From the NCBI GenBank assembly GCA_046725795.1, contig JBKOZI010000104.1, positions 1 through 36,800 of the forward strand: DNA of 36,800 bases, written 5' to 3'. Within the stretch, counting starts at the first letter, position 1. Every line of letters starts with the position of its first letter. Below the pieces are notes generated by a model. That model had not been told where the DNA came from, did not search any database, and saw nothing but the letters and a program-made list of their open reading frames with translations. The DNA comes from Actinomycetota bacterium. GTDB taxonomy: Bacteria > Actinomycetota > Thermoleophilia > Solirubrobacterales > JBBDJG01. A program made the translations under genes and the position numbers. Positions 9,372 to 32,671 of the stretch are shown piece by piece.

Positions 9372-10358
9372 CTACCGGGGCAGGCAGTTGACGTAGCAGG
9401 GATATGTCATCCAGGCGCGGAGATCCCCCTGCGGGTCGAACAGATACGCGCCATCGCCGAGCCCGCGCCCATCCCGCGTCGCGTTCTCGAAGACCGGATG
9501 GTCGAGGCCCCAGTAGAAGAAGGTGCCGGAGTCCACACCGCTGCCGACGTCGACGGAGATGCTGCCGCCCGGCGGGATCACCGTCCAGGAAGGGAACTCG
9601 TATCGAGCCAGCGACGAGTCGCGCAGCCACCAGCCTTGGAGCGGCACCTCCTGGGCCGAGAGGTTCTCGATTCTGACCTGCTCGCCGTTGAGGTTATGGA
9701 GGTCGCTGCCCTTCGGATCGGGATAGACCGTCAGGCGTAGCGCCGCGGACTCGCTCGGGCCGTCGCCGCAGGCGTTCGTGTCCCACATGTTCACGCGGCG
9801 CAGTGCGGCCTGTTGGGCAAGCCCGCTGTAGGGAGCGTTCCATGCGTACTCGACCGTGTAGGGCAACCACAGCGCGTGCCCCTCGCCGACCAGGATGCGT
9901 CCGAGGTCCTGCCACTTTCCACGGATCTTCACGGCCACCGACCGCCGCAGCCTCCGACGCGAGACGCTGGTGGGGTCCTGTGCCCCGAGGCGGACCGTGC
10001 CGCGGCCCTTTCTGATCAGCTGCTCCAGCCTGGCGGTCGCGGGAAGTGCGTGGCATGCGCCCTTGCGCCTCCGGGGGTTACTCGCGTAGACGCTCTGCTC
10101 CATCGCCTGGATGCCGATGATCCGGACCCGCACGTTCTTCCGCTTCCCGGTCGAGGTGGGCATGTTGACGTCGATCGTGTCGCCGTCGTCCACCCACCTC
10201 AGCTTGCCTCTCCAGAAGTGGCAGGTCGGGTTGGGAGTGCCCAGAGGGACATCTGAAAGGCAGGAACCGAGCCACTCCGCCTGGGCGGTCGGCGTCTGGG
10301 CGACCAGCGCCGACACGGGCGCGATCGCGAGCAGGACGAGCGTGGTCAATCGACGCAT
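9372..10358 (-). CDS. Secreted thermonuclease (SNase)-like plus lamin-tail-domain (LTD) protein
   Basis: Signal peptide MRRLTTLVLLAIAP...AQA. SNase motifs WVDDGDTIDV and VRIIGIQAME. LTD motifs NGEQVRIEN...LQGWWLRD...YEFP...IPPGG...GDGAYLFDPQG. Start moved to ATG 10358. Confidence 0.85.
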   Translation of the reverse strand: MRRLTTLVLLAIAPVSALVAQTPTAQAEWLGSCLSDVPLGTPNPTCHFWRGKLRWVDDGDTIDVNMPTSTGKRKNVRVRIIGIQAMEQSVYASNPRRRKGACHALPATARLEQLIRKGRGTVRLGAQDPTSVSRRRLRRSVAVKIRGKWQDLGRILVGEGHALWLPYTVEYAWNAPYSGLAQQAALRRVNMWDTNACGDGPSESAALRLTVYPDPKGSDLHNLNGEQVRIENLSAQEVPLQGWWLRDSSLARYEFPSWTVIPPGGSISVDVGSGVDSGTFFYWGLDHPVFENATRDGRGLGDGAYLFDPQGDLRAWMTYPCYVNCLPR

Positions 10359-10424
10359 TCGGCAGGTCAGGGTAATCTTCACGCGGCTAAGGCGAGCCGT
10401 CGCGAGACTCTTAGGGGCACGATT

Positions 10425-12062
10425 TTGGTCAAGATCAGCGTCATCGTGCCGGTCTACAACCCGGGCGCCAACATCGACGAGTGCCTCTCCTCCCTGCTGG
10501 GGCAGTCGCTCCCGGACGACGAGTACGAGCTGATCTTCGTCGATGATGGTTCGACGGACGAGACGCCCGCGCACCTGGACGAGCTCGCGCGGACGCGCCG
10601 CAACGTCCGCGTCGAACACATTCCCAATTCGGGGTGGCCGGGTCGTCCGCGCAACATCGGCCTCGAGCTCGCGCGGGGCGAATTCGTCTATTTCGTGGAC
10701 AACGACGACTGGCTCGGGCGCCGGGCGCTCGAGCGCCTGTACGCGTCAGCGCTTCGCAACGAATCGGACATCGTGGTCGGCAAGGTCGTCGGGCACGGCA
10801 AGACCGTCTCACGAGCTCTGTTTCAGCGCAACCGGCGAGCGGCGTCGCTCGAGTGGCCTGCCCTCCTCGGGCTCCTGACACCGCACAAGCTCTTCAGGAA
10901 AAGCCTGCTGGACGAGCACCGGATCCGGTTTGAGGAGGGTCCACGCCGGCTCGAGGACCACCTGTTCGTCGTCCATGCCTATTTTCACGCGAGGCGGATC
11001 TCCGTGCTCGCGACCTACCCTTGTTACCACTGGCGAAGAGTGCCGGACGATTCGAACGCGTCATGGAGACGGTTCGACCCCGTGGGTTACCACAACGACC
11101 TGCGCGCCGTGCTCGACCTCGTCGACCGTCACACCGAGCCCGGGCCCTTGCGTGACGGGATGTACGCCCACTGGTACCGAGGCAAGCTGCTCGCGCGCGT
11201 CGGGGGGGAGTCGTTCCTGCGACGCGACCCGGAGTACCGCCGCGCGCTCTACGAGGAGATCCGTCGCCTGACGCTCGAGCGGTACGGGCCCGAGTTCGAC
11301 GCCGCGCTCTCGTTCAAGCACCGCCTGCGCGCGCGCCTTCTTCGCCAGGACGGCTATGAGGCCCTGGAGGCGCTCGCGGAGTTCGAGTCGGGGCTTCGCG
11401 CGGACGTCATGATCCGGCGCCTGCAAGGTGACGGGGAAAGCGTCGGGATCGAGCTGGAGGCCCGCTTGGGTGGCGAGCGTGAGCCGTTCACGGTCCACCG
11501 GCGTGGAGCGCGAATGTACTGGCTCGCGCCCGAGGCGATCCGCAAAGAGCTGCCTGAGGAGGCACTCGACGTGACCAACCAGCGTCCCAGGGGCATCGTG
11601 CAGCTGCCCAGGGGCATGGTGCAGCTGCTCTTGAAATCGACAAGGGATGGGAGCGAGTTCATGGTGCCGACGGCGTCCGAGATCGTGCTCGTGAGCGCTT
11701 CCCCATCCGGGCAGGAGAAGAGACCCGTCGTGATCGCGGCCGCGGACGTCGAGCGCGGCCGCGCCGCCGCCGGGTCGCGACTTCCCCCCGGCGAGTGGGA
11801 AGTCCAAGTGCTCGTGGACGTGGGCGGTATGCGGGCGACCACGAGCATCGTGCATCTACCCGCTCGCTGGCGGTTCGGGCGGCGGCGGCGAAGGACCGGG
11901 ACGCTGACGCTGCTGGCGACCTGGGACGGTCGCCTCCTCCCCCGGCCGCCTTTCAGACGCCGCATCGCCCGGCGGTTCCCGCGAGCCGCGAGCCTCGCCG
12001 AAAGCTTCAGGCGGCGAGGTCGCGGTGCTGTCGAACCCGCAGGCGGGGACGCGGGCGCTTGA
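10425..12062 (+). CDS. Glycosyltransferase family 2 with extended C-terminus (TarS-like architecture)
   Basis: ISVIVPVYN, FVDDGSTD, NSGWPGRPRN, FVDNDD, HKLFRK, LEDHLF. Confidence 0.9.
   Translation: MVKISVIVPVYNPGANIDECLSSLLGQSLPDDEYELIFVDDGSTDETPAHLDELARTRRNVRVEHIPNSGWPGRPRNIGLELARGEFVYFVDNDDWLGRRALERLYASALRNESDIVVGKVVGHGKTVSRALFQRNRRAASLEWPALLGLLTPHKLFRKSLLDEHRIRFEEGPRRLEDHLFVVHAYFHARRISVLATYPCYHWRRVPDDSNASWRRFDPVGYHNDLRAVLDLVDRHTEPGPLRDGMYAHWYRGKLLARVGGESFLRRDPEYRRALYEEIRRLTLERYGPEFDAALSFKHRLRARLLRQDGYEALEALAEFESGLRADVMIRRLQGDGESVGIELEARLGGEREPFTVHRRGARMYWLAPEAIRKELPEEALDVTNQRPRGIVQLPRGMVQLLLKSTRDGSEFMVPTASEIVLVSASPSGQEKRPVVIAAADVERGRAAAGSRLPPGEWEVQVLVDVGGMRATTSIVHLPARWRFGRRRRRTGTLTLLATWDGRLLPRPPFRRRIARRFPRAASLAESFRRRGRGAVEPAGGDAGA
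11586..11627 (+). repeat. In-frame 21-nt tandem duplication (PRGIVQL/PRGMVQL)
   Basis: cccaggggcatcgtgcagctg followed by cccaggggcatggtgcagctg, 20/21 identical. Confidence 0.85.
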
Positions 12063-12847: not shown

Positions 12848-14185
12848 TTGACTTCTTCGCAATCAGCGCCAGCGGCGCCGGTGCGTCTCCGGCGTCGCCT
12901 GTTGGGCCCGGTCGCCGTCCGATTGCACCGGGCAGCCCTGCGGCTCGCGCGGCCGCTGGCTCGATCCGGAACCGCCGACGACCGTTCGGGAATGGACAGG
13001 GTATACGTGCTCCTGCTGCATGCGTACGGGATGGGCGGGACGATCCGGACCTCGCTGAACCTCGCCGGCCACCTGGCGGGACACCGCGAAGTCGAGGTGA
13101 TTTCGCTGGTGCGCCGGCGCAAACAGTCCTTCTTCGACGTGCCGCCGGGAGTGACCGTGACGGCGCTCGACGACCGCAGGAAGGGCGCACGTGAGGGGTG
13201 GACCCGCGCGGCACTCGGGAGGCTGCCGAGCCTGCTCGTCCATCCCGACGATTACGCCTACGCCGACTGCAGCCTCTGGACCGACGTGCTGCTCGTCCGT
13301 GCCCTGCGGTCATTGGGCTCTGGAGTCCTGGTGACGACGCGCCCGGCCCTGAACATCCTCGCCGCGAACCTCGCGCGGCCTGGAGTCCTGACGATCGGCC
13401 AGGAGCACATGAACTTCACAAGCCACGACCGGCCGGCGCTGCGAGCCGACATCCGCCGGCACTACCGGAAGCTCGACGCGCTCACCGTGTTGACCCGCGA
13501 CGACCAGCGTGACTATGCCGAGATGCTCGAGCGCGCGCGTACCCGTGTCGTCCGTATCCCGAACGCGGTCGAGAGCCTCGGAGGCGACCCTTCTCCGCTC
13601 GATGGGAACGTGGTCGTAGCGGCCGGCAGGCTCAATCGCCAGAAGGGATTCGATCTGTTGATCGCAGCGTTCGAGCGGGTCGTCCGCGCACGCCCCGACT
13701 GGCGGCTTCGCATCTACGGCAGCGGTCACTGGCGTGATCGGCTCCAGCAGTTGATCCACGCACGGGGCCTGGACGACAACGTGTTCCTGATGGGGCGCTC
13801 GCAACGCCTCGGGGAGGAGCTGCGGAAGGCTTCGATCTTTGCGCTCAGCTCCCGTTTCGAGGGCTTCGGCATGGTGATCGTCGAGGCGATGAGCAAGGGA
13901 TTGCCGGTCGTGAGCTTCGACTGCCCTCGCGGGCCGGCGGACATAATCAGCGACGGGCGCGACGGCATCCTGGTCCCGCCGGAAGACGTCGAGCGCTTCG
14001 CCGCTGCTCTGCGCGAGCTGATCGACGATAAGAAACGACTTCGGCGATACAGCGAGGCTGCGCTCGAGAAGGCCCAGGCCTACGACATCGCCGTAATCGG
14101 CCCGCGGTGGGACTCGCTGCTCGACGAGCTGACGGGCGAACGCGGGAAGCGCGCGGCCGCAAGCCGCGTCGCCGCGGGTGGTTAG
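12848..14185 (+). CDS. Glycosyltransferase family 4 (GT-B)
   Basis: [41 protein letters not shown] (Ex7E), DGILV. Start may instead be ATG 12992. Confidence 0.93.
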
Positions 14186-14285
14186 GCTGAGTTATTTGAC
14201 GAGTGGCGTTGGGCAAACGCACGTGGCACCAGCCGCCGGAGTACCTGAGCGCACGCACCCGGCGTCTCCGAGCGACCGCGTCGGT

Positions 14286-15746
14286 GTGACAACCGCAGTG
14301 CTGTTCGCCACCGCCGAGGCCGAAGATGGCGGACCGGCGGCAGCGCTTCCGTGGGAAGAGAGATCCTTGCTGAGTCGCCTGCTGGCGCAGCTTGCGGAGC
14401 TCGGAATCCGCTCGGCGCACGTCATTACGCGCCCCGGCTGGGAGGAATCGCTGCGCCCGTCCATCGACGGCTCCGGCCTCGCTGCCCAACTGCACGTCTC
14501 CGCCGGTACCCCCGGCGATGTCGCCACGATCGCGGCGCTCGCGACGGACGGCCAGGGCGACCTGCTCGTCGTCTCCGCCGGCATCGTCATCCATCGCGAA
14601 GCGCTCGCCGGGCTGCTCGCCGATCCGCGTGCTTCGACCGGCGCGCTCTGCACGGGCCGAGACATCAGCGACACTTTCAGCCCCGCCGCCCGCACGACGC
14701 AGGGCCGCATCGTGAGCGCGGCCTCTGCCTGTCACGAGGTCAGCAGTCCGAACGCGAGGTTCCTCGGCGTCATCAAGATCGCAGGGGCAAACCGTGCCGC
14801 GCTGGCGGACGCCGCCGCCCGGTTGGCTGCGTTCACCGAAAGGAACCCAAGTGCGCCGCAGGACGCCGTGTCGCTTCTGCTGGTCGGGCTCGTTCGCTCG
14901 GGCGTCGAGGTCGGCGCCCGCCCGCTGCGCAAGCTGTTCTGGGCGCGCCCGCTGTCGAGCCCGGAGGCCGAGCGAGCGGCCGGCGACATCGCCGCCTTGG
15001 ACGAGGACCGCCTGATGCTCGACTCGGCGGTCAAGGCCAACGACAGCTTCTTCACGACCTTCTTCGTGAGCCCGTACTCGAAGTACCTCGCGCGCTGGGC
15101 GGCCCGGCGTGGTCTGACACCGAACCAGGTCACGACGGTCTCGCTCGGCATCGGCGTGCTCGCCGCGGCCGCATTCGCGACCGGCGAGCGAGCCGGGCTG
15201 ATCGCCGGCGCGATCCTGCTCCAGGTGTCGTTCGCGACCGACTGCGTGGACGGGCAGCTCGCCCGGTACGCGCGGATGTTCTCCCGGCTCGGCGCCTGGC
15301 TCGACGCGGTCTTCGATCGCACGAAGGAGTACGCGGTGTTCGCCGGCCTCGCGATCGGCGCGAGCAGGGCAGGCGATGAGGTCTGGGTCCTGGCGGGCGC
15401 GGCGCTGGCGCTCCAGACGGCCCGCCATACGATCGACTTCTCTTACCTGATCCTCGAACGGGAGCGGCTTGCCGCCGTGCGCCGCCCGCCGCTCGAGCAG
15501 CGTGGTGACGGCTCATCGGGAGCCAAGCAGCGCCCGGCTGTGGCCTGGGACATGCTCAACCGGAGTGCGACCATCCGGTACGTCAAGCAGTTCATCGCCT
15601 TCCCGATCGGAGAGCGGTTCGCCGTGATCTCGATCACGGCCGCGATCGCGAGCGCCCGCACGACCTTCGTCGTGCTGCTGGCCTGGGGCGGATTCGCAAC
15701 CGCCTACAAGATGATCGGACGTGTCGTGAGGTCGCTCGGTCGATGA
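14286..15746 (+). CDS. CDP-alcohol phosphotransferase with degenerate N-terminal nucleotidyltransferase-like domain
   Basis: TPNQVT and complete signature DCVDGQLAR...GAWLDAVFD. N-terminus resembles an NTP transferase but lacks GxGxR. ORF is open from GTG 14178; GTG 14286 is chosen as the domain start. Confidence 0.88.
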   Translation: MTTAVLFATAEAEDGGPAAALPWEERSLLSRLLAQLAELGIRSAHVITRPGWEESLRPSIDGSGLAAQLHVSAGTPGDVATIAALATDGQGDLLVVSAGIVIHREALAGLLADPRASTGALCTGRDISDTFSPAARTTQGRIVSAASACHEVSSPNARFLGVIKIAGANRAALADAAARLAAFTERNPSAPQDAVSLLLVGLVRSGVEVGARPLRKLFWARPLSSPEAERAAGDIAALDEDRLMLDSAVKANDSFFTTFFVSPYSKYLARWAARRGLTPNQVTTVSLGIGVLAAAAFATGERAGLIAGAILLQVSFATDCVDGQLARYARMFSRLGAWLDAVFDRTKEYAVFAGLAIGASRAGDEVWVLAGAALALQTARHTIDFSYLILERERLAAVRRPPLEQRGDGSSGAKQRPAVAWDMLNRSATIRYVKQFIAFPIGERFAVISITAAIASARTTFVVLLAWGGFATAYKMIGRVVRSLGR

Positions 15747-16360
15747 CGGCGTTCGAGCTCTGCCGCGACGACGGGCCGCTCGCGCGCGCGCTCGGGGCCA
15801 CACTTGGCCGCCGCCTGCGCCTGCCGGCGATCGCGCTGGTGGTGAGCGGCGTCGTGCCGCTGCTCGCCGTGATCGCACTCGAGGGCGCGGGCGCCGCCGA
15901 TGTCGCGGTCGGCGCCGCGGTGGGGTGGCTTGTCCTGACGGCGGGTGCATCGCGCGGGCGGCCGCACACGGACTCCCTGCGCTGGGCGGTCCCGCCCGTG
16001 CTCCGAATAGGCGAGTACGCTACCGTCATCTGGTTGGCCGCGATCGCCGGCGGAGGTGGGCCGGCCGCCGCCTTCGCCCTGCTCGCCGCCGTCGCGTTCC
16101 GGCACTACGACCTCTTCTACCGGCTCCGCTTTCTCGGCCTGGCGCCGCCCCGCTGGGTCGGCGACGTCGCCGGCGGCTGGGAGGGGCGCTCGATCGCCGC
16201 CTACGTGCTGCTCCTCGCGGGAGCGGTGCCCGCGGGCTTCTTCGTGGCGGGCGGGCTTCTGGGAGCGCTGTTCGTCGGCGAGAGCATCGCCGCGTGGGCC
16301 CGGGCCCAGAGCACCGGGGCAGTCGCCCAGTTCGAGATCGGGGAGGTCGAAGAGGAGTGA
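15743..16360 (+). CDS. DUF5941-like membrane protein (probable degenerate CDP-alcohol phosphotransferase fold)
   Basis: ATGA coupling upstream and GTGA coupling downstream. Hydrophobic, with RDDGPLAR, WAVPPVLRIGEY, FRHYDLFYR, GGWEGR motifs. Confidence 0.8.
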   Translation: MTAFELCRDDGPLARALGATLGRRLRLPAIALVVSGVVPLLAVIALEGAGAADVAVGAAVGWLVLTAGASRGRPHTDSLRWAVPPVLRIGEYATVIWLAAIAGGGGPAAAFALLAAVAFRHYDLFYRLRFLGLAPPRWVGDVAGGWEGRSIAAYVLLLAGAVPAGFFVAGGLLGALFVGESIAAWARAQSTGAVAQFEIGEVEEE

Positions 16361-17100
16361 TCGGCCTGGTGCTCGCCGCAGGCGCCGGGAGCCGCCTCCA
16401 ACCGTGGACGGACACGCTTCCCAAGACGCTGCTGCCGGTCGACGGCGACCGCTCGATCCTCGACGTCGCGCTCGCGAACCTCAAGCACGTCGGCCTCGAC
16501 GAGGTCGTGGTGGTGGTGGGCTTTGCCGCCCAGCGCGTCTCCGAGCGGGTGCCCGAGCTCGAGCGCCGTTACGGACTCCGCCTCGATCTCGTCTTCAACC
16601 CGAAGGCCGAGGAATGGAACAACGCGTACTCGCTGTGGTGCGCGCGCGAGGCGTTGGCCGAAGGCGCGCTGCTCGTCAACGGCGACACGGTCCACCCCGC
16701 CGTCGTCGAGGAACGACTGCTGGAACACCGAAAGGCCGTCCGGGGGAACGACGTTGTGATCGCCGTGGACCAGGCAAAGCCGCTCGGCCGGGAAGAGATG
16801 AAGGTGCACGTCTCTCCGGACGGGTTGCTGGAACGCATCAACAAGGGCATCGATCCCGCGGACGCCCACGGGGAGTACATCGGCCTCACGCTCATCGAGC
16901 GCGAAGCCGCCACGCCGCTCGCAGACGCGCTGGAAGCGACCTGGCGGCGTGACCCCTCTCTCTACTACGAGGACGGCTTTCAAGAGTTCGCCGACCGCGG
17001 TGGGCGGATCGGCATCGCCCCGATCGGCGAGGTCGAGTGGGTCGAGGTCGACGACCATGCCGACCTGGCCCGGGCGCGGGAGGTCGCATGCCGCTGCTGA
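16357..17100 (+). CDS. Sugar/alcohol-phosphate cytidylyltransferase (LicC/IPCT-like NTP transferase)
   Basis: LAAGAGSRL, LPKTLLPV, NNAYSL, LVNGDTV, EEMKV, GEYIG, YYEDG, WVEVDDHADL. GTG start 16357 overlaps the upstream TGA. Confidence 0.92.
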   Translation: MIGLVLAAGAGSRLQPWTDTLPKTLLPVDGDRSILDVALANLKHVGLDEVVVVVGFAAQRVSERVPELERRYGLRLDLVFNPKAEEWNNAYSLWCAREALAEGALLVNGDTVHPAVVEERLLEHRKAVRGNDVVIAVDQAKPLGREEMKVHVSPDGLLERINKGIDPADAHGEYIGLTLIEREAATPLADALEATWRRDPSLYYEDGFQEFADRGGRIGIAPIGEVEWVEVDDHADLARAREVACRC

Positions 17101-18146
17101 CGCGCATGGTCGGGACTCCGCTGGCGATCGACATCCGGCCGGGAGCGGTCACGGCGCTGGCGCCGCTGCTCGCCGACCGGAGGATCTCGAGCGGCGGGCA
17201 CGTGGCGGTGGCGGTCGGACCGGGACAGGGTGAGGAGATCGCCGCGCTGCTTCGGCCACAGCTCGCCAACGCCGACATCTGGACCGTCGAAGGAGGGAGC
17301 GTCGAGGCCGCGCAGGACCTGGGGAAGCGGCTTCGCCAGGGCTTCTATGACGCGCTCGTGGGGATCGGCGGGGGCCGGACGCTCGATGTCGCAAAGCACG
17401 CCGCGAGCATGAGCGGGCTTCCGGTGGTGACGGTCGCGACCAGCCTCGCGCACGACGGCATCGCCTCGCCCGTCGCCTCGCTCGAGGAGGGAGGACGGAA
17501 GGCGTCCTATGGGGTGCAGATGCCGATCGCGGTCGTGGTCGACCTCGACTACGTCCGCCGCAGCGAGCCGGCACTGCGACGATCCGGGATCGGCGACGTC
17601 GTCAGCAACCTGTCTGCGATCGCCGATTGGCGACTGGCGGAGCGCGAATGCGGCGAGCCGGTCGACGGCGTCGCGGTCACGTTCGCCCGCACGGCGGCGA
17701 CCTCTGTGCTGCACCGCGAGGACGGGATCGACGACCAGGATTTCCTGATCGCGCTGGCGGAGGCGCTCGTGCTCTCCGGCCTTGCGATGGCGACCGCGGG
17801 CAGCAGCCGCCCCTGCAGCGGTGGTGATCACGAGATCCTGCACGCAATCGACCACCTGTTTCCGGACACGGCGCGTCACGGCGAGCTGGCGGGCGCCGCT
17901 AGCCTCTTCACGTGCTTCCTGCACGGCGACGCCGCGCTCGCGCGAGACCTCGACGTATGTCTCCGCCGGCACGACCTTCCCCGCACGCCGTCCGAGCTCG
18001 GCCTGAGCGAGGACCAGTTCGTGCAAGCTGTCATACACGCGCCGGCCACCCGCCCCGACCGCTACACGATCCTTGAGCACCTCGACCTCGACGACCAGCG
18101 AACCAGAGAACGCGTCCAAGCGTTCGTCGACGCCTACGATCGCTGA
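17088..18146 (+). CDS. egsA: sn-glycerol-1-phosphate dehydrogenase family (EgsA/AraM; iron-containing ADH/DHQS-like fold)
   Basis: GIGGGRTLDVAK, TSLAHDGIASP, SGIGDVVSNLSAIADW, SSRPCSGGDHEILHA, HGELAG. ATG 17088 follows ggagg. Confidence 0.85.
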   Translation: MPLLTRMVGTPLAIDIRPGAVTALAPLLADRRISSGGHVAVAVGPGQGEEIAALLRPQLANADIWTVEGGSVEAAQDLGKRLRQGFYDALVGIGGGRTLDVAKHAASMSGLPVVTVATSLAHDGIASPVASLEEGGRKASYGVQMPIAVVVDLDYVRRSEPALRRSGIGDVVSNLSAIADWRLAERECGEPVDGVAVTFARTAATSVLHREDGIDDQDFLIALAEALVLSGLAMATAGSSRPCSGGDHEILHAIDHLFPDTARHGELAGAASLFTCFLHGDAALARDLDVCLRRHDLPRTPSELGLSEDQFVQAVIHAPATRPDRYTILEHLDLDDQRTRERVQAFVDAYDR

Positions 18147-18900
18147 GCTGCGGGCGGCGACGCAGCCGCCCTCGCTGTTCGAGCGCAACAGCGGCGAGCA
18201 CTGGACGGGCCGCCTGTACATGCGCCGCCTCTCGCCGTACGTGACCAGGCTGATCCTGCCGACGCGGATCAGCGCAGACGCCGTGACAGGAGCGACGCTC
18301 GTGGCCGGCCTCGCCGCGGCTGCGTTGCTGACGCTGCCCGGCCTGATTCCGGCCGCGGGAGCGGTCCTGCTGATCCAAGCCCAGATGCTGCTCGACTGCT
18401 CCGACGGCGAGGTCGCGCGCTGGCGGCGCCAGTACTCGACGGCCGGCATCTACCTGGACCGGCTGTCCCACTACGTAACCGAGACCGCGTTTCCGATCGC
18501 GCTCGGCGTGCGGGCGGACGGCGGCTGGGACTCGATCGGAGGATGGACGTCGCTCGGCCTCCTGATCGCCGTGCTGGTGCTCTTGATTAGAACGGAAACT
18601 GCGCTGGTGCATGTCGCGCGGGCGGAGTCCGGCAAGCCGCTCGTCGTCGACAGCGAGGCGGTCGCGGCCCCGCGCGGCACCGGGCTGCGGCGCGTCCGGC
18701 GTGCGTTCCGGTTCATGCCGTTCTTCCGCGCTTTCGTCGCAATCGAGTTCACGTTGATCGCATTCGTGGCCGCAGTCGTCGACGCGATCGCGGGCGACCT
18801 CGTGGGCACGCGCGTGTTGCTCGTTGCCCTGCTTCCCGTTGCCGCCGTGACCGCAACCGGACACCTGCTCGCGATCCTGGCCTCCAGCCGGCTTCGTTGA
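18073..18900 (+). CDS. CDP-alcohol phosphotransferase family protein (variant signature)
   Basis: SADAVT; LDCSDGEVARW...GIYLDRLSH, where the last Asp of the motif is replaced by His; multiple TMs. Start uncertain (TTG 18073). Confidence 0.88.
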   Translation: MSTSTSTTSEPENASKRSSTPTIAELRAATQPPSLFERNSGEHWTGRLYMRRLSPYVTRLILPTRISADAVTGATLVAGLAAAALLTLPGLIPAAGAVLLIQAQMLLDCSDGEVARWRRQYSTAGIYLDRLSHYVTETAFPIALGVRADGGWDSIGGWTSLGLLIAVLVLLIRTETALVHVARAESGKPLVVDSEAVAAPRGTGLRRVRRAFRFMPFFRAFVAIEFTLIAFVAAVVDAIAGDLVGTRVLLVALLPVAAVTATGHLLAILASSRLR

Positions 18901-19754
18901 CCGTCACCTGCGTAGTCCTCAGCCAGGGCCACCGGCCCGAGGAGCTGCGACTCGCCCTCGACTCGCTGCTCCGCCAGCGCGGCGTCGAGGTCGACGTGGT
19001 CGTCGTGGGCAACGGATGGAAGCCGAGCGGTCTGCCGGTCGGGGTGCGGAGCATCGCGCTCCCGAAGGACGTCGGGATCCCGGCCGGGCGAAACGCCGGC
19101 GTTCCAGATGCTCGAGGCGAGCTGCTCTTCTTCCTCGACGACGACGCGAGCCTCGCGGCCGACGATGCCCTCACGCGGGTCGCCGCCAAGTTCGACGACC
19201 GGGACCTCGGCCTGCTGCAGCTGCGCGTCGTGCCCCGCTCGGGAGGCCGCCCGCGCCGCGACTGGATTCCGCGCCTGCGAGCCGGAGACCCCGCGCGAAG
19301 CAGCGAGGTGACCGCCGTCTGGGAGGGCGCGGTGGCGATCAGGCGGGGCGTGTTCGAGCAGGTCGGCGGCTGGCCGGCGGAGTTCCGCCACGCCCACGAA
19401 GGCATCGACCTCGCGTGGCGCGTGATGGACGCCGGATATCGCGTCCTGTACGCGGGCGACGTGGCCGCGCTCCACCCGGCGCAGGCCGAGCCGATGCCGC
19501 ACGCGTATTCGTTCTATTTCGGCGCCCGCAACCGTGTGTGGCTCGCCCGCCGCCACCTGCCCTTCCCGCTGGGCGCGATCTATGTCGTAATGTTCGCGCT
19601 CCGCACGGTGCCGCGGCTGCGGTCAGCCCACGCCGTGCGCGAGGCGGCGCGCGGGTACCGGGACGGGATGCGCGGACCATGCGGCGGGCGGCGCAGGCTC
19701 AAAGCGCGGACGCTCCTGCGCATGACTCTGGCTGGCCGTCCGCCCATAATCTGA
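18897..19754 (+). CDS. Glycosyltransferase family 2
   Basis: VVVVGNG, GIPAGRNAG, LFFLDDDA, HEGIDLAWR, ARNRVWLARR. TTGA coupling. Confidence 0.92.
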   Translation: MTVTCVVLSQGHRPEELRLALDSLLRQRGVEVDVVVVGNGWKPSGLPVGVRSIALPKDVGIPAGRNAGVPDARGELLFFLDDDASLAADDALTRVAAKFDDRDLGLLQLRVVPRSGGRPRRDWIPRLRAGDPARSSEVTAVWEGAVAIRRGVFEQVGGWPAEFRHAHEGIDLAWRVMDAGYRVLYAGDVAALHPAQAEPMPHAYSFYFGARNRVWLARRHLPFPLGAIYVVMFALRTVPRLRSAHAVREAARGYRDGMRGPCGGRRRLKARTLLRMTLAGRPPII

Positions 19755-19789
19755 CTGGTCGGCCCCGAGGCCCCCGGAGCGAGAGCGAT

Positions 19790-19795
19790 TAGCCT
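19790..19795 (+). promoter_or_regulatory. Putative -10 box for a leaderless ABC permease transcript
   Basis: TAGCCT (TANNNT) 6 nt upstream of ATG 19802, with no Shine-Dalgarno in between. Confidence 0.45.
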
Positions 19796-19801
19796 GATCC
19801 G

Positions 19802-20737
19802 ATGAGCACGGAGACAGACAGCAGCCGCAAGCACCACGGCGTCGCCGCGCTGCGCCGCCCGTGGGGCAGAAGGAACGGCAGGGCTCATCTGACCCGCGAA
19901 GACGAGTTCACCGGCCAGCGGCACGTCTACGAGCCGCACGCCGCGGGATTGCCGCCGCTCCGGTCCTACGTCCGTGAGCTGTGGCGTCGCCGGGAGTTCG
20001 CCCTGGAGCTGTCGCGCACCAGGTTGCGCGCGCAGCACTTCAACACGGTCTTCGGGCAACTCTGGCTGGTGATCAACCCCCTCCTGCTGGCCGGGGTCTA
20101 CTTCGTGCTCGTCGACATCATCCGGCCGAGCTCGCGCGGCCTCGACTTCTTCGCTCACCTGATGGCGGGACTCTTCGCCTACTACTTCGTCTCGAACGCC
20201 TTGCGGGAGGGAGTCAAGTCGGTCGTGAAGGGCGGCCGGCTGATCCTCAACACCGCCTTCCCGCGCGCCCTGCTCCCACTCTCGTCGGTGATCACCTCGT
20301 TCATGCGCTTCGTCCCGACGATCTTCATCTACGCACCGGTGCACCTGATCGCGGGACTACCGGTCGGGCCGCAGCTCCTCTGGGTGCTGCCGCTCGTGGC
20401 GCTCTTCTTCGTGCTTTCGGCCGGCCTCACGATGCTGGTCGCGGCGGGTCAGGTGTACTTCCGTGACCTCGCGAACTTCCTGCCCTACGCGCTGCGGGTC
20501 TGGCTCTACATGTCGCCGATCCTGTACTACGCAAGCGAAGTCCCCGAGCGCTACAAGTGGGTCCTCGACGTGAACCCGATCGCGCCGCTGCTGACCGCAT
20601 GGAGCGACGTGCTGAATGCGGGCCATGCGCCGAACGGCGGCGACCTGGCGCTGGGCGCGGCGTGGGCGTTTGCGCTGTTCATCGCCGGGGCGCTCTTCTT
20701 CACGTCGCGGGAGCGTGAGTTTGCTGTCCGCCTCTGA
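19802..20737 (+). CDS. ABC-2 polysaccharide/teichoic acid exporter permease (TagG/Wzm family)
   Basis: LWRRREF, FGQLWLVINPLL, FPRALLPL, FRDLANF, YMSPILY, VNPIAP; about 6 TMs. Confidence 0.93.
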   Translation: MSTETDSSRKHHGVAALRRPWGRRNGRAHLTREDEFTGQRHVYEPHAAGLPPLRSYVRELWRRREFALELSRTRLRAQHFNTVFGQLWLVINPLLLAGVYFVLVDIIRPSSRGLDFFAHLMAGLFAYYFVSNALREGVKSVVKGGRLILNTAFPRALLPLSSVITSFMRFVPTIFIYAPVHLIAGLPVGPQLLWVLPLVALFFVLSAGLTMLVAAGQVYFRDLANFLPYALRVWLYMSPILYYASEVPERYKWVLDVNPIAPLLTAWSDVLNAGHAPNGGDLALGAAWAFALFIAGALFFTSREREFAVRL

Positions 20738-21503
20738 CCAGCACAGCGTCTGCGTCGAGGACGTCTCGGTCACGTATCGCACGTCGTTCGAGCGTGCGCC
20801 CACGCTGCGGAGCACGATGCTGCGGCTCGGCCGCCGGGAACGCATGGTCCGCGAGATCGAGGCCTTGAAGGGCGTCTCGTTCGACGTGAAGCACGGCACC
20901 GTGCTGGGCGTCATCGGGGCGAACGGCGCCGGCAAGTCGACGCTGGTCCGGACGGTCGCCGGCATCCTGCCTCCGACCACGGGCCGCGTCGAGGTACGCG
21001 GCCGCGTGAGCACCCTGCTTGCGCTCGGCGTGGGGTTCAACCGCGACCTGAGCGGTCGTGACAACGTCGTGCTCGGAGGGCTCGCGGCCGGCCTCACCCG
21101 CGACCAGATGGCGGAGAAGTACGACGAGATCGTCGAGTTCGCCGAGCTCGCCGACTTCATGGACCTGCCGATGCGCACCTACTCGTCGGGCATGTACGGC
21201 AGGCTCGCGTTCTCGGTCGCCGTGAACATGGATCCCGACATCCTGCTGATCGACGAGGCCCTGTCCGTGGGCGACGCGCGCTTCCGCCGCAAGTCCTTCG
21301 AGAAGATGCGCGAGCTCTGCGGCCAGGCGCGGACGATCGTGCTCGTGAGTCATTCGATGGGCAGCATCAGCGAGCTCTGCGACCAGGCGATCTGGATGCA
21401 CGGCGGCGAGATGCGGCTGTGGGACGAGCCCGACGCCGTGATCGAGGCCTACACGAACTTTCTCGACGTCAAGGACGACGCGATTACGCGCGAGGACGTC
21501 TAG
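20715..21503 (+). CDS. ABC polysaccharide/teichoic acid exporter ATPase (TagH/Wzt family, no C-terminal CBM)
   Basis: ALKGVSF, Walker A GANGAGKST, YSSGM signature, ILLIDEALSVGD, VSH. Start is GTG 20715 or TTG 20721. Confidence 0.95.
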   Translation: MSLLSASDQHSVCVEDVSVTYRTSFERAPTLRSTMLRLGRRERMVREIEALKGVSFDVKHGTVLGVIGANGAGKSTLVRTVAGILPPTTGRVEVRGRVSTLLALGVGFNRDLSGRDNVVLGGLAAGLTRDQMAEKYDEIVEFAELADFMDLPMRTYSSGMYGRLAFSVAVNMDPDILLIDEALSVGDARFRRKSFEKMRELCGQARTIVLVSHSMGSISELCDQAIWMHGGEMRLWDEPDAVIEAYTNFLDVKDDAITREDV

Positions 21504-21666
21504 TGGTCCGTCTCGGAACGTTGGCCTCGAAATGGCGAGGGCCGGGCGTCGGCAGGCGAGGACGCAGGAAGCCCGAATACTGGGCAGTATTCGGGCGACC
21601 GAGGACGAAGCATGGCGGCGATCCGGTGCCGCCATTTCAGGTCGAACGTTTCGGGACGGGCCACTA
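21501..21666 (+). mobile_element. 166-nt palindromic hairpin element, copy 1 (MITE / RPE- or ERIC-like architecture)
   Basis: TAGTGGTC...GGCCACTA termini; 38-nt arms (21500-21537/21630-21667, 31/38 complementary); central perfect hairpin gcccgaatactg/cagtattcgggc; TA at both ends. Confidence 0.8.
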
Positions 21667-23133
21667 GGCACCGCAATTCGGCGCGGCGTACACGAGCCAC
21701 GACCCGTTGCCGTACAGCCGGCTGTAGCTCGCTGGAGGCTTGTAGCGAGGAAAGTTCTTCTTGTAGAAGCCGCGGACGTGTGGCACCGACCGCGGTACGA
21801 CCAGCAGGCGGCCAAGCGGGCTGGCGCCGCTCTCGACCGTTCCGACAGAGCCCGGCCGCCCGTCGAGCCAGTACCGCAGGTAGGGGATCGGTCGGTGGTC
21901 CGCCGCCGAGAGCGGAGCGCATGCGGCGAATGCGTCCCGCACCGGTTTCGCCTGGCCGAGTGACCGCAGATCCGCGTACAGCCTCCCGTTGCGCTCGATT
22001 GCCTTGTGAACGCCCTCCAGCATGTCGGCGTGGCGCGGGATAAAGGCGACCGACAGGGCGAGTGCGAACATTCCGGCCGCCAGCCACCGGCGCCGCGCGC
22101 GACCTTCCGGCAGCAGCGCCCAACCGCACACGGCGAGACCGTAGAAGAGCGCCAGCAGAATCGCGGGCGTGCGGAGGTACCTGCCGATCAACGGCAGCCC
22201 GAAGACCGGGCCGATCGCAAACACCGCGGTCATCGCAGCGGCCACGACCACGGGCAGGATCCCCTCACGGCGGCGGTAGAGCCACGCGAACGCCAGCCCG
22301 ATCGGAACGCCGATCACCAGCGGCTCCCGGAGCGTGAACCCGAAGTACTGCGCGGTCCAGTAGGGCACCTGACTGATGTGGCGACGGCGGTCCTGCTCAT
22401 CGGCCAGCGCGGCTGTGCCGTGAAGCGAATGGAGCGCGTCGTGGGCGATCAGAAGATCGCTCAGCATCCACACCGCCGGCGCGGACGCGGCGATCGCGAA
22501 GAACGCGACGCGGGTTCTCGCCGAGACCGCCGGCCACATGTAGAGGACGTACAACCCCGACAGGAACCAGGCCTCAGGACGTAGCAGCCCGGCGACGGCG
22601 AGCACCGCGAGCACCACGGCGCCTCGTCGAGGACGCCGCGCCTCGAGCAGAACCGCGCCGACGATCAGTGCCGCGAACGGGATGTCCTGGTACGCCAGCA
22701 ACGCGTCACGCTCGAGCGCGGGTCGGGTGAACACGACCGCAGCAGCGACCACGCCCGCCCAGGGCGAGAACAGCTGGGCGCCGAGCCGGTAGACGAGCCA
22801 GACGAGCGCACCGAACGAGAGCAGCACGACCCAGGTCATGAGTTGGTCCGACGCAGCGAAGGGATGCACGAGAAAGCTGATCGCGGTCTGCAGCGGATGC
22901 GGAGTGGGCGCGAACGGCGCCCCGTAGTCGGGACGGACGCCGTCCCAGAGGTCGCCTGCCCAGAGCAGCGCATAGCGGGCGTCGTAGTTCAGGTACCAGG
23001 GGTCGTAGACGACACGCAGCAGCACCGCGACCCCCACGATCGTCGCGGCCGGGACCGCGAAGCGCGCGATCGACCGCGGGATCGGCGCGACCGTGGCGGG
23101 CGCGGAGGGCGTGGTCGTGGAGCTAGTGGTCAC
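21664..23133 (-). CDS. Polytopic membrane protein, probable GT-C fold glycosyltransferase (PMT/ArnT-like)
   Basis: First TM followed by loop YLNYDARYALLW, then PTPHPL, AYQDIPF, AGLLRPEAW, GRYL; about 11-13 TMs. Start GTG 23133; ORF is open to 23181. Confidence 0.75.
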   Translation of the reverse strand: MTTSSTTTPSAPATVAPIPRSIARFAVPAATIVGVAVLLRVVYDPWYLNYDARYALLWAGDLWDGVRPDYGAPFAPTPHPLQTAISFLVHPFAASDQLMTWVVLLSFGALVWLVYRLGAQLFSPWAGVVAAAVVFTRPALERDALLAYQDIPFAALIVGAVLLEARRPRRGAVVLAVLAVAGLLRPEAWFLSGLYVLYMWPAVSARTRVAFFAIAASAPAVWMLSDLLIAHDALHSLHGTAALADEQDRRRHISQVPYWTAQYFGFTLREPLVIGVPIGLAFAWLYRRREGILPVVVAAAMTAVFAIGPVFGLPLIGRYLRTPAILLALFYGLAVCGWALLPEGRARRRWLAAGMFALALSVAFIPRHADMLEGVHKAIERNGRLYADLRSLGQAKPVRDAFAACAPLSAADHRPIPYLRYWLDGRPGSVGTVESGASPLGRLLVVPRSVPHVRGFYKKNFPRYKPPASYSRLYGNGSWLVYAAPNCGA

Positions 23134-23289
23134 GGTCGTGAGTACGGTCGTGCTTGGGCGAGCGAGAACCAAGGCTGGCAAGGACGCAGGGAGGTCGCAT
23201 GCCTAAATGGCATGTGACCGACCGAGGACGCCACCAGGTGCCGGTTCGCAGCCGGCCAAGTGCGGGCGTATTTACGATCGGGGCCACTA
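23124..23289 (+). mobile_element. 166-nt palindromic hairpin element, copy 2
   Basis: TAGTGGTC...GGCCACTA termini; 34-nt arms with 25 Watson-Crick + 7 G-U pairs; central hairpin ggtcgcatgcc/ggcatgtgacc; same internal motifs as copy 1. Confidence 0.8.
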
Positions 23290-24422: not shown

Positions 24423-25070
24423 TTGGCGCTCCTTACGACAGCCTCCCTGACCGGACCGCTCGTCGACTTCGCGACGAACGTGATCGGCGACCTCGGCACC
24501 GCCGGGATCTTCATCCTGATGCTGCTGGACAGCGCCTGCATCCCCACGTCGAGCGAGGCGATCATGCTCTTCGCGGGCTTCAAGGTCGCGGACGGCCGTT
24601 TCACGATGCTCGAGATAGTGATCGCGGGTGTGGCCGGAAACCTGGTCGGGTCCTGGGTCGCATACGGAATCGGCTACTACGGCCGGGTCGAGCTGCTGAA
24701 GCGCCATGGTAAGTGGCTGCACATCGGCCCGAAGCAGATCGCGTGGGCCGACCGCTGGTTTGAGCGCTACGGCGACGCCACAGTGTTCTTCTCCCGCATG
24801 CTGCCCGTGATCCGGACGTTCATCTCGCTCCCTGCCGGTGTCGCGAGGATGCCGTTCTGGCGGTTCAGCGTGCTCAGCACGATCGGAATCATTCCGTGGG
24901 TGCTCGCCTGGGGGATCATCGGCAAGCAGGTCGGCAGCGACTGGGACAAGCTCCAGGAGAAGGCGCACTACGCCGACTATGCGATCGTCGCGGGGATCAT
25001 CGTGACGATCCTGTACTTCGTCCTTCGCCGGCGCGCCGGGAAGCCCGCAACCAACACCAGCGGGCCTTGA
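24423..25070 (+). CDS. dedA: DedA family membrane protein (candidate undecaprenyl-phosphate flippase)
   Basis: DSACIPTSSEAIMLFAG, GNLVGSWVAYGIG, WFERYG...FFSRMLPVIRTFISLPAG. Confidence 0.93.
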   Translation: MALLTTASLTGPLVDFATNVIGDLGTAGIFILMLLDSACIPTSSEAIMLFAGFKVADGRFTMLEIVIAGVAGNLVGSWVAYGIGYYGRVELLKRHGKWLHIGPKQIAWADRWFERYGDATVFFSRMLPVIRTFISLPAGVARMPFWRFSVLSTIGIIPWVLAWGIIGKQVGSDWDKLQEKAHYADYAIVAGIIVTILYFVLRRRAGKPATNTSGP

Positions 25071-25945
25071 GCGACGACCGGCTCCCGATCGCGCACGCGG
25101 CCGTGCTCGGCGCGATCCAGGGACCGGCCGAGCTGCTGCCGATCTCCAGCTCCGGCCACCTCGTGCTCGTGCCGGCGATGCTCGGCTGGCGGTACCGCGA
25201 GCTCGATCCCGAGATCCGGAAGTCGGTCGAGGTGGCCCTGCATGCGGGGGGCGCCGCGGCGCTGCTGATCGGCCTGCGCAAGGAGGTCGCCGAGTACGTG
25301 CGGTCCTTCGGGCTCCACAACCTTGCGAGCCTGGCACTCTCCTTCGCACCCGCGGCTGCGATCGCTCTCCGGTTCGAGCAACCCATCGAACGCCGGCTTT
25401 CCGAGCCGCGCCCCGTCGCGATCGCGCTGCTCGCGGGCTCGGCCGCGATGGCCGTCGCCGACGGCCGGCCCGAGCGCCGCGGGCGCAGGGACGCAAGCCT
25501 CGTCGACGCCGTGGTGATCGGAGCTGCACAGGCGTTCGCGCTCGCACCAGGGGTCTCCCGCAACGGGGCGACTCTCGCCGCGGCGCGCTGGCGCGGCTTC
25601 CGGCGACCGGACGCGAACGTGATCTCGCGGCAGATCGCCCTGCCCGTGATCGTCGGCGCGACGGCGCTGAAAGGCGCCCGCCTCGCGACGCGCGAGCTTC
25701 CGCCGGGGATCGGGCAGGGAATGGCGGCAGGCGCGACGGCGGCGTTCTGCTCGACGCTCGTCTCCATGCGCCTGATCGCGATGCTCGAGCGCAGCCGGTC
25801 GCTGCTTCCATATGTCGCCTACCGCACGGTGCTCGGGACGGCTGCCCTGCTCGCGCTGAGAAAGCGCGCTCGGAGCCGGCAACCCGCCCCGCTCTCGATG
25901 AACGGCCACCGTGCCGCGGAGCGCGTGGCCACTCCAGTTCAATAG
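25067..25945 (+). CDS. uppP: Undecaprenyl-diphosphate phosphatase (BacA/UppP)
   Basis: GAIQGPAELLPISSSGHL, VALHAG, AQAFALAPGVSRNGAT. TTG start overlaps the dedA TGA. Confidence 0.9.
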   Translation: MSDDRLPIAHAAVLGAIQGPAELLPISSSGHLVLVPAMLGWRYRELDPEIRKSVEVALHAGGAAALLIGLRKEVAEYVRSFGLHNLASLALSFAPAAAIALRFEQPIERRLSEPRPVAIALLAGSAAMAVADGRPERRGRRDASLVDAVVIGAAQAFALAPGVSRNGATLAAARWRGFRRPDANVISRQIALPVIVGATALKGARLATRELPPGIGQGMAAGATAAFCSTLVSMRLIAMLERSRSLLPYVAYRTVLGTAALLALRKRARSRQPAPLSMNGHRAAERVATPVQ

Positions 25946-28346: not shown

Positions 28347-29831
<1,485 letters not shown>

Positions 29832-29844
29832 CCGGGAGGACCCG

Positions 29845-32666: not shown

Positions 32667-32671
32667 GGACG

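Follow-up and report, generated by a model that had tools for sequence, protein, structure and literature searches.

Glycerol-phosphate polymers and their decorations are central to the envelopes of Gram-positive bacteria. Known bacterial routes draw either sn-glycerol-3-phosphate units from cytidine diphosphate (CDP)-glycerol, through TagD and TagF, or sn-glycerol-1-phosphate (G1P) units from phosphatidylglycerol, through LtaS and GacH-type enzymes. In Bacillus subtilis, AraM was reportedly demonstrated in 2008 to be a G1P dehydrogenase (G1PDH). In the pneumococcal Gtp1–3 route, a reductase yields glycerol, a phosphotransferase converts it to glycerol-2-phosphate, and a cytidylyltransferase activates the product. 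In its passages on actinomycetes, PMC3196553 reports that Streptomyces and other members of the group make lipoteichoic acid, finds no clear LtaS orthologues in sequenced actinobacterial genomes, and leaves the route open. CDP-1-glycerol was considered probably absent from bacteria in a passage of a 2021 paper (PMC8262930). Here we describe an eight-gene operon at positions ~14178–21503 of a 36,800-nucleotide stretch (the window) of contig JBKOZI010000104.1, from a soil actinobacterium of the Solirubrobacterales. We lean towards the view that this operon directs the synthesis of a glycerol-phosphate envelope glycoconjugate by a route that dispenses with TagD and TagF, its enzyme activities being predicted from sequence.

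A Streptomyces synteny comprising a CDP-alcohol phosphatidyltransferase, a family 2 glycosyltransferase (GT2), a sugar-phosphate nucleotidyltransferase, tagG, tagH, araM, and crtB has been recorded in a 2026 pan-proteome study (PMC13118837). That study files the synteny under teichoic acid biosynthesis and its proteins as orphans, and its passages on these genes propose no pathway or chemistry. It is the sole mention of the synteny that we found; our literature search, which had subscription journals outside its scope, returned no biochemical characterization of the cluster, in agreement with the preliminary description of this DNA, and no paper on DUF5941. The cluster is real, widespread in Actinomycetota, and uncharacterized.

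The window has a G+C content of ~70%, which crowds raw lists of open reading frames (ORFs) with spurious frames. The gene map was taken from a caller based on codon-position composition, and families were assigned with Pfam and NCBIfam. On the plus strand, the caller placed genes at 12992–14185, 14367–15746, 15743–16360, 16357–17100, 17088–18146, 18073–18900, 18897–19754, 19802–20737, and 20715–21503, of which the last eight correspond to the operon. Gene 1 (14178–15746) encodes an IPCT/DIPPS-like membrane protein with a CDP-alcohol phosphotransferase (CDP-AP) domain, and gene 2 (15743–16360) a helical membrane protein of about six helices that matches DUF5941. Gene 3 (16357–17100) encodes a soluble LicC/IPCT-type nucleotidyltransferase (NTP_transf_3 and NTP_transferase in Pfam), gene 4 (17088–18146) a G1PDH homolog of the EgsA/AraM family (Fe-ADH_2; NCBIfam PRK00843, 236 bits), and gene 5 (18073–18900, start uncertain) a small, divergent CDP-AP. 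They are followed by a soluble GT2 (gene 6, 18897–19754; Glycos_transf_2), an ABC-2 permease of the TagG/TarG/Wzm type (gene 7, 19802–20737; ABC2_membrane), and an ABC ATPase of the TagH/TarH/Wzt type (gene 8, 20715–21503; ABC_tran). All eight genes lie on the plus strand and overlap by 4, 4, 13, 74, 4, and 23 nucleotides (nt), the value of 74 applying only if gene 5 starts at 18073; the sole non-overlapping junction, 19754/19802, has a gap of 47 nt. The composition-based caller thus reproduced the run of eight co-oriented genes with a single open junction that had been described before, and all eight gene families named at that time were matched.

In the route that we propose, gene 4 would convert dihydroxyacetone phosphate to G1P, and gene 3, translationally coupled to gene 4, would combine G1P with CTP to give CDP-1-glycerol. 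A complex of the gene 1 and gene 2 products, which has a canonical active-site motif, and the gene 5 product, a His variant, would then take glycerol phosphate from CDP-glycerol and attach it to a hydroxyl group at the cytoplasmic face of the membrane. The acceptor could be a lipid-linked glycan, a glycolipid, or a preceding glycerol phosphate. Sugars would be added by the GT2 of gene 6, and perhaps also by a neighboring family 4 glycosyltransferase (GT4) and a TarS-like GT2, before the lipid-linked product is exported by the TagGH-like ABC-2 transporter of genes 7 and 8. What the sequences show is the family memberships, the order of the genes and how far it is conserved, the split of genes 1 and 2 relative to fused homologs, and the state of the motifs; every substrate in this scheme is inferred, and so are the use of CTP, the stereochemistry, the acceptor, and the number of glycerol phosphates transferred (one or many). 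A pathway of this kind had been suggested in the preliminary description; its G1PDH, cytidylyltransferase-like partner, CDP-alcohol transferases, and TagGH-type exporter are retained here, whereas its details on genes 1 and 2, on the motifs, and on an "archaeal" character are revised.

The dehydrogenase anchors this proposal. Against the PDB, gene 4 matches the Methanocaldococcus jannaschii and Pyrobaculum calidifontis G1PDHs with E-values of 5e-44 and 3.8e-37, respectively, whereas the best glycerol dehydrogenase outside the G1PDH group reaches 1.1e-7, leaving the G1PDHs ~100 bits ahead. This agrees with the earlier placement of the protein in the G1PDH family, glycerol dehydrogenases scoring 1e-7 or worse. 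The Fe-ADH_2 match amounts to 99 bits. In an alignment of 61 diverse family members, 43 columns are conserved to at least 90%; gene 4 retains 42 of them, among which are D123, H248, and H264, positions that we take to be the metal ligands. On the basis of the PDB score gap and two published trees, gene 4 is assigned to a divergent bacterial branch of the G1PDH family. The former label "archaeal-type" suits the predicted chemistry but not the lineage: actinobacterial G1PDHs fall into bacterial groupings, with Firmicutes in the phylogeny given in PMC6431249 and with Gammaproteobacteria in the one given in PMC5059525.

The best solved relative of gene 3 is LicC (PDB: 1jyk; 2.6e-14), a CTP:phosphocholine cytidylyltransferase, and the protein also aligns over its full length with the inositol-1-phosphate cytidylyltransferase of Thermotoga maritima (PDB: 4jd0). 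We infer that gene 3 encodes a predicted CTP:sn-glycerol-1-phosphate cytidylyltransferase. Since substrates are not readable from sequence, a different polyol phosphate (ribitol, arabinitol, erythritol, or an inositol derivative) could in principle enter the pathway and yield a non-glycerol phosphodiester; the likeness of gene 3 to inositol-1-phosphate enzymes would suit such a substrate, as would the score of gene 4, which falls below the equivalog cut-off for G1PDH. We consider this improbable, given that gene 4 has kept all but one of the highly conserved G1PDH-family columns, that solved G1PDHs score ~100 bits above every other Fe-ADH-type enzyme, and that domain scans of the window found no inositol-phosphate synthase or other gene for a polyol phosphate.

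A CDP-2-glycerol route of the pneumococcal Gtp1/Gtp2/Gtp3 kind bears on the same pair of genes. That pathway likewise pairs a reductase with a cytidylyltransferase. The genes gtp1–3 are described as predicted CDP-2-glycerol genes in the relevant part of PMC1391919. The strong match of gene 4 to G1PDHs, which act on a phosphate substrate, argues against this route, and the window holds no accompanying third gene for a kinase or phosphotransferase. We regard it as very improbable, the least likely of the alternatives considered in this work.

Proteins that unite the two domains were also encountered. P0197, of 579 amino acids, carries nucleotidyltransferase and dehydrogenase domains in a single chain, and a search for longer dehydrogenase fusions gave 8 matches, some of them combining the same two domains. 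All eight are single-member clusters; they could be artefacts of assembly or gene calling, and we treat them as weak evidence. Among the individual chains, P0391, P0392, and P0394 exceed 617 amino acids, have an annotated dehydrogenase domain, and are single-member clusters that may be artefactual. One nucleotidyltransferase–dehydrogenase fusion, among P0197, P0391, and P0394, also includes DUF5941.

To describe the cluster beyond the window, genomes were scanned with the alignment of 61 dehydrogenase homologs, and the best 80 of at least 599 matches were kept. All 80 loci come from Actinomycetota, save one from a metagenome-assembled genome labeled Gammaproteobacteria. The window's own genome is not among them, and the best locus is 63% identical; the closest protein relatives of the window proteins carry Thermoleophilia or Solirubrobacterales names. 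A nucleotidyltransferase gene lies immediately upstream of the dehydrogenase gene on the same strand in 79 of the 80 loci, and in 73 the upstream ORF ends inside the dehydrogenase ORF with the same 13-nt overlap as in the window. A CDP-AP signature follows within 9 kb downstream of the dehydrogenase in 74 loci. Homologs of the gene 6 GT2 occur in 63 and in most loci follow gene 5, while the permease and the ATPase have homologs in 64 and 62 loci, respectively. This gene order reflects more than chance, and its recurrence bears out the earlier remark that similar clusters exist in other Actinobacteria.

A Pfam survey of 134 proteins from 12 representative loci, from which the lower-GC loci L021 and L038 were left out, revealed how the surroundings of the core vary. 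In Gaiellaceae and Thermoleophilia, the trio formed by the gene pair and the CDP-AP after it is accompanied by the exporter and by sulfotransferases. A Nocardiopsis locus (L002) comprises an LCP ligase, a GT2, a glycerophosphodiester phosphodiesterase, the exporter, DUF5941, the trio, and another GT2, whereas a Plantactinospora locus has the trio and a divergent GT4 alone. The complete set is present in Streptomyces and Kitasatospora loci. There, for example at L037:14839–18216, the exporter is directly followed by a pair of squalene/phytoene synthase genes and one amine-oxidase-type gene, which resemble hopanoid cluster genes. Of the 70 loci whose downstream flank is long enough, 49 have a homolog of the first synthase there; the window has no such genes.

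The locus labeled Gammaproteobacteria (L010, 5269–12534) departs from this pattern. Here the pair lies between two LicD-family proteins, along with methyltransferases and a TagD-like cytidylyltransferase, and no CDP-AP is present. CDP-APs and LicD proteins are unrelated users of CDP-alcohols, and their occurrence beside the same pair suggests that the pair delivers a CDP-activated alcohol. We regard this exchange of partners as the strongest indirect evidence for a CDP-alcohol as the putative product.

We next consider the proteins predicted to use this product. Gene 1 has three candidate starts (14178, 14286, and 14367), and Pfam leaves an N-terminal region of ~280 residues before the CDP-AP domain unassigned. 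A start near 14178 is the more probable, rather than the 14286 given previously, because the N-terminal stretch TSGVGQT is shared with the homologs P0281 and P0291. The CDP-AP domain (CDP-OH_P_transf, PF01066; residues 314–406) scores 44.4 bits against a cut-off of 22 and contains a complete signature of the DxxDGxxAR..G..D..D pattern, DCVDGQLAR-x8-G-AWL-D-AVF-D, at position 15240. Its top PDB sequence match is AF2299. The AlphaFold model of gene 1, with a predicted local confidence (pLDDT) of 71.8, has the IPCT-DIPPS structure 4mnd as its top fold match (E 2.8e-13 over 479 columns), and its N-domain matches RmlA, PntC, and the T. maritima IPCT (4jd0). Against the NCBIfam equivalog model for IPCT/DIPPS, gene 1 scores 50.6 bits (cut-off 580), the match covering the CDP-AP part only.

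The N-terminal domain of gene 1 resembles a nucleotidyltransferase that has lost its catalytic signature. All 20 aligned members share the motif region LATAxxxDGGPAAALPW, and none has G-x-G-x-R near the N-terminus, which we take to be the glycine-rich catalytic motif of active nucleotidyltransferases. The domain is read as putatively non-catalytic or repurposed. A tblastn search with its window version matched none of the 80 loci. Homologs of gene 1 fall into three length groups: ~480–500 amino acids, like the window protein; ~560–650 amino acids, sometimes with a detectable NTP_transf_3 domain; and ~790–830 amino acids, consisting of a CDP-AP and DUF5941. Some homologs carry PF12804.

The longest homologs explain the relation between genes 1 and 2. 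When aligned with the fused proteins, gene 2 resumes exactly at the point where gene 1 ends, and in Streptomyces-type loci the CDP-AP and DUF5941 mostly form one ORF that ends at the start of the nucleotidyltransferase gene. Judged by these alignments, genes 1 and 2 are a split form of a three-domain protein with a nucleotidyltransferase-like domain, a canonical CDP-AP domain, and DUF5941. The family names used in the preliminary description, a "CDP-AP fusion" and a "DUF5941-like" protein, were right, but the two are not separate entities; they represent both halves of one IPCT/DIPPS-like protein.

Gene 2 matches DUF5941 (PF19365) with 107.2 bits, against a gathering cut-off of 27. Its predicted model is of high local confidence (pLDDT 92.6) and has no PDB fold match at E 0.001. 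Eight of the ten top-ranked chains are nevertheless CDP-APs, including AF2299, phosphatidylserine synthase, IPCT-DIPPS, and phosphatidylinositol-phosphate (PIP) synthase, the best match having an E-value of 0.8, a probability of 0.90, and a query-normalized TM-score of 0.55. DUF5941 may be a CDP-AP-fold domain stripped of its catalytic signature, a suggestion from the model that we offer as a lead and not as a result. The predicted complex of gene 1 residues 270–522 with gene 2 reached a score of 0.86, compared with 0.00 for the best of three controls; 58 of 80 solved complexes attain the score mark applied, as do 2 of 110 mismatched pairs. Contact agreement between runs was at least 84%, and partner pLDDT was at least 84. 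In the model, gene 2 packs on the transmembrane helices of the gene 1 CDP-AP domain, the interface being formed by gene 1 helices 370–426, just past the catalytic motif, and by gene 2 residues 78–131, which harbor the invariant residues of DUF5941. The prediction supports binding between the two proteins. They are, however, halves of a split gene, and because the input alignments include fused homologs, the complex mainly confirms the evidence from the fusions.

Gene 5 departs from the canonical signature at one conserved position. Its profile match is narrow (26.2 bits against a cut-off of 22), sufficient for family membership, and its best PDB match is again AF2299 (1.5e-5). The signature at position 18394, DCSDGEVAR-x8-G-IYL-D-RLS-H, has His in place of the fourth conserved Asp. 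Across the loci, this position of the downstream CDP-AP is occupied by His in 37, Ala in 29, Asp in 7, and Gly in 1, while upstream motifs of the gene 1 type have Asp in all 37 instances. In all 29 loci with the Ala form, a canonical CDP-AP lies upstream. The His form accompanies a canonical CDP-AP in 6 loci; in 25 loci with adequate upstream flank and in 6 with a short one, no other CDP-AP motif was found. From this distribution, catalysis seems to tolerate His but not Ala at this position; the Ala loci are probably one related group, however, and common descent could account for the correlation.

For both CDP-APs, the best scores are those against AF2299 and IPCT/DIPPS, with CDP-diacylglycerol enzymes scoring less well. 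Enzymes of the AF2299 and IPCT/DIPPS group take soluble CDP-alcohol donors. The same relationship invites another explanation, in which the core trio makes a soluble phosphodiester of the kind found in Archaeoglobus, either diglycerol phosphate or glycerophospho-inositol: CDP-glycerol would be joined to a polyol phosphate and the product dephosphorylated, and the flanking envelope genes would be unrelated. Both of these solved relatives are Archaeoglobus fulgidus proteins, and two Kribbella loci have a phosphatase-family gene directly after the pair. According to the pertinent part of PMC8262930, CDP-1-glycerol is needed for archaeal glycerophosphoinositol, and A. fulgidus cytidylyltransferases prefer glycerol-1-phosphate. 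Yet the window genes overlap with the GT2 and continue into the exporter within one operon, most of the 80 loci have a GT2 and an exporter together with the pair, and no phosphatase was found in the window. We judge a soluble product to be decidedly improbable, a little more so than a change of polyol.

The last genes of the operon point towards the envelope. For gene 6, the only solved relative is PglI (1e-4), a glucosyltransferase acting on an undecaprenyl-diphosphate-linked glycan. The gene 8 ATPase is closest to TagH (7dd0; 8.8e-63) and TarH (6jbh; 3.5e-58), and the gene 7 permease to TagG (9cfp; 4.1e-11) and TarG (6jbh_C; 4.3e-11), as expected from the earlier mention of a TagGH-like exporter. 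The Wzm/Wzt transporters of O-antigen and mycobacterial galactan follow close behind, and gene 8 has no C-terminal carbohydrate-binding extension. The exporter falls below equivalog cut-offs, with 211.6 versus 538 and 183.8 versus 320 bits for the TagH models and 207.2 versus 400 bits for the galactan Wzt model. The exporter, the TarS-type neighbor, and the LCP and phosphodiesterase genes of Nocardiopsis fit a teichoic-acid-like polymer.

Domain scans of every called ORF in the window found no match to Glyphos_transf (TagF/TagB, PF04464) or CTP_transf_like (TagD, PF01467), nor, among the called ORFs scanned, to HAD or GGGPS domains. The absence from the window of TagF/TagB, TagD-type, and HAD proteins, noted previously, is therefore upheld. 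A reading of the locus as an archaeal ether-lipid operon was ruled out, as neither GGGPS nor a UbiA-type prenyltransferase was found in the window.

Several points weigh against an envelope glycoconjugate built by CDP-APs. Known CDP-APs make single transfers, and to our knowledge a role for a CDP-AP as polymerase is without precedent. Gene 4 scores under the NCBIfam equivalog cut-off for G1PDH (NF002022; 236.3 versus 413 bits), and our literature search found no assayed enzyme of its clade or cluster. The activity of gene 5 is uncertain, because it lacks the fourth conserved Asp, the proposed catalytic base. The counts do not represent independent events, as about 60 of the 80 loci belong to Streptomyces, Kitasatospora, and their near relatives. 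Seven Micromonosporaceae loci have the trio without an exporter homolog at the thresholds used, which implies that the core can work without export. In the Kribbella loci L058 and L065, a tyrosine-phosphatase-family gene (Y_phosphatase3; at 11093–11803 in L058) comes after the pair in place of a canonical CDP-AP; within 9 kb, L058 shows no CDP-AP motif, and L065 has the Gly-variant motif downstream. Finally, a second glycan pathway (Bac_transf, Wzy_C) is encoded in the window, and some of the neighboring genes may serve that pathway instead.

One alternative product is a lipid head group in place of a polymer. CDP-1-glycerol would then be moved once, to diacylglycerol or to a glycolipid, and the ABC-2 pair would move the lipid. 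With diacylglycerol as acceptor, this would amount to a Kennedy-type route straight to phosphatidylglycerol with the natural sn-1' head group; with a glycolipid, the products would be glycerophospho-glycolipids. Known CDP-APs are single-transfer enzymes of lipids or solutes, which would suit this account, as would the Micromonosporaceae loci, in which only a divergent GT4 joins the trio and exporter homologs are missing, and the GT4 that precedes gene 1 in the window. Against it stand the affinity of both CDP-APs to AF2299 and IPCT/DIPPS and not to the PgsA, PssA, or PIP-synthase group, the presence of exporter homologs in 64 and 62 and of a GT2 homolog in 63 of the 80 loci, and the exporter's closest solved relatives, which carry polymers on polyprenyl carriers. 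We consider a lipid product unlikely, albeit the least unlikely of the alternatives to a glycoconjugate.

The more ambitious version of the glycoconjugate proposal would be that the operon represents the first bacterial CDP-sn-1-glycerol pathway, in which CDP-APs prime and polymerize poly(sn-glycerol-1-phosphate) on a lipid anchor inside the cell, the polymer leaves through the TagGH-like exporter, and DUF5941 is the dead CDP-AP-fold partner of a pseudo-dimer. This would provide the long-sought LtaS-independent lipoteichoic or teichoic acid route of Streptomyces, Thermobifida, and other Actinomycetota. We hold this version to be unlikely.

Downstream of the operon, the 160-nt intergenic stretch 21504–21663, between the ATPase stop and the stop of a convergent gene, folds as one long hairpin at the end of the operon. 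The plus-strand RNA has a folding energy of -114 kcal/mol (z -11.9), compared with -79.9 kcal/mol (z -6.65) for the minus strand. Because the fold is far more stable as plus- than as minus-strand RNA, the mismatches in its arms seem to be G-U-compatible on the plus strand only. The hairpin is long but imperfect: a search for exact inverted repeats with a 9-base seed between 21400 and 21750 found none. Its 24-base central palindrome has no second copy in the window. Rfam gave no match for the hairpin or elsewhere in the window, in which no tRNA was found either. The gene arranged tail to tail with the operon (21664–23181, minus strand) encodes a protein of 505 amino acids with ~8 hydrophobic segments and a C-terminal soluble part, and has no Pfam or NCBIfam match even at permissive thresholds.

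By its family matches, the cluster lies in an envelope-glycan neighborhood. Directly upstream, the GT4 gene at 12848–14185 (plus strand; Glycos_transf_1, 147 bits) borders on gene 1 or overlaps it and could be part of the same transcript, possibly as its first gene. At the search thresholds, just 2 of the 80 loci have a homolog nearby, so the GT4 is not conserved with the cluster. Further upstream are a Bac_transf polyprenyl-phosphate sugar-phosphate transferase (180–827) and a GT2 with a TarS_linker domain (10425–12062), a homolog of which lies inside the cluster in locus L019. The other upstream genes encode one or more GT2 enzymes, a Wzy_C protein, a LytR_C protein, a PglF/PseB-like dehydratase, and a methyltransferase. 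Two large proteins are also encoded in this glycan locus (4093–5931, and 9372–10619 on the minus strand), with FlgD_ig and DMFA2_C domains in one and a lamin-tail domain in the other; domain scans of the proteins at 8684–9361 and 9372–10619 gave no informative family.

The downstream side comprises the 505-residue membrane protein, a DegT aminotransferase, DedA/VTT and UppP (BacA) genes, and then a region with Ddl, PknB, a penicillin-binding protein (PBP), and RodA/FtsW. The DedA/VTT gene overlaps the start of UppP by 4 nt (24423–25945, using the start at 25067), and we take both families to be linked to recycling of the undecaprenyl phosphate carrier. The stretch 28347–36800 is a conserved actinobacterial cell-division and wall region with a Ser/Thr kinase, a GH15 glucoamylase/trehalase-like enzyme, Ddl, a PASTA kinase (PknB-like), a PBP transpeptidase, and RodA/FtsW.

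If the proposed route is correct, a conserved pair of G1PDH and cytidylyltransferase would supply CDP-1-glycerol in many Actinomycetota, and the action of CDP-APs on envelope glycoconjugates would constitute new enzymology. The cluster is a concrete candidate for the actinobacterial lipoteichoic acid route that can be tested by knockout. It also defines a CDP-AP subfamily with His or Ala at the position of the proposed catalytic Asp, and the models may give DUF5941 its first structural and functional context.

The cluster can be compared with several known systems. The Streptomyces cluster of PMC13118837 matches the Streptomyces loci found here, including the squalene/phytoene synthase genes downstream. 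With the B. subtilis AraM/PcrB system, which makes heptaprenylglyceryl phosphate, the operon shares a bacterial member of the G1PDH family. It differs in that the window has no GGGPS/PcrB-type prenyltransferase; with a nucleotidyltransferase as the partner of the dehydrogenase, G1P would be nucleotide-activated rather than prenylated. The pneumococcal LicC/LicD system, which decorates teichoic acids with phosphocholine, and the Gtp1–3 system likewise use a LicC-type cytidylyltransferase to activate a small phospho-alcohol for a glycan, and in L010 the pair itself lies beside LicD-family genes. In the window, by contrast, the transferases are CDP-APs, and the precursor would come from a G1PDH homolog.

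The IPCT/DIPPS and AF2299 proteins of A. fulgidus, which are CDP-inositol/CDP-glycerol phosphotransferases of soluble phosphodiester synthesis, resemble the window proteins in pairing a cytidylyltransferase with a CDP-AP around a soluble CDP-alcohol, and gene 1 has the two-domain architecture of IPCT/DIPPS, the source of its top fold match (4mnd). Unlike the archaeal enzyme, the gene 1 family lacks G-x-G-x-R, has DUF5941 as an additional membrane module, and is encoded in an operon with a GT2 and an exporter. The wall teichoic acid pathway of Firmicutes (GpsA/TagD/TagB/TagF, TagGH) shares the overall logic of the proposed route, with a CDP-activated polyol phosphate, assembly at the cytoplasmic face, glycosyltransferases, and ABC-2 export, and a TarS_linker GT2 stands beside the cluster in the window. 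At every chemical step, however, the cluster's enzymes are non-homologous to those of Firmicutes: a G1PDH homolog takes the place of sn-glycerol-3-phosphate supply, a LicC/IPCT-type enzyme that of TagD, and CDP-APs that of TagB and TagF, and the glycerol phosphate transferred here would be the opposite enantiomer.

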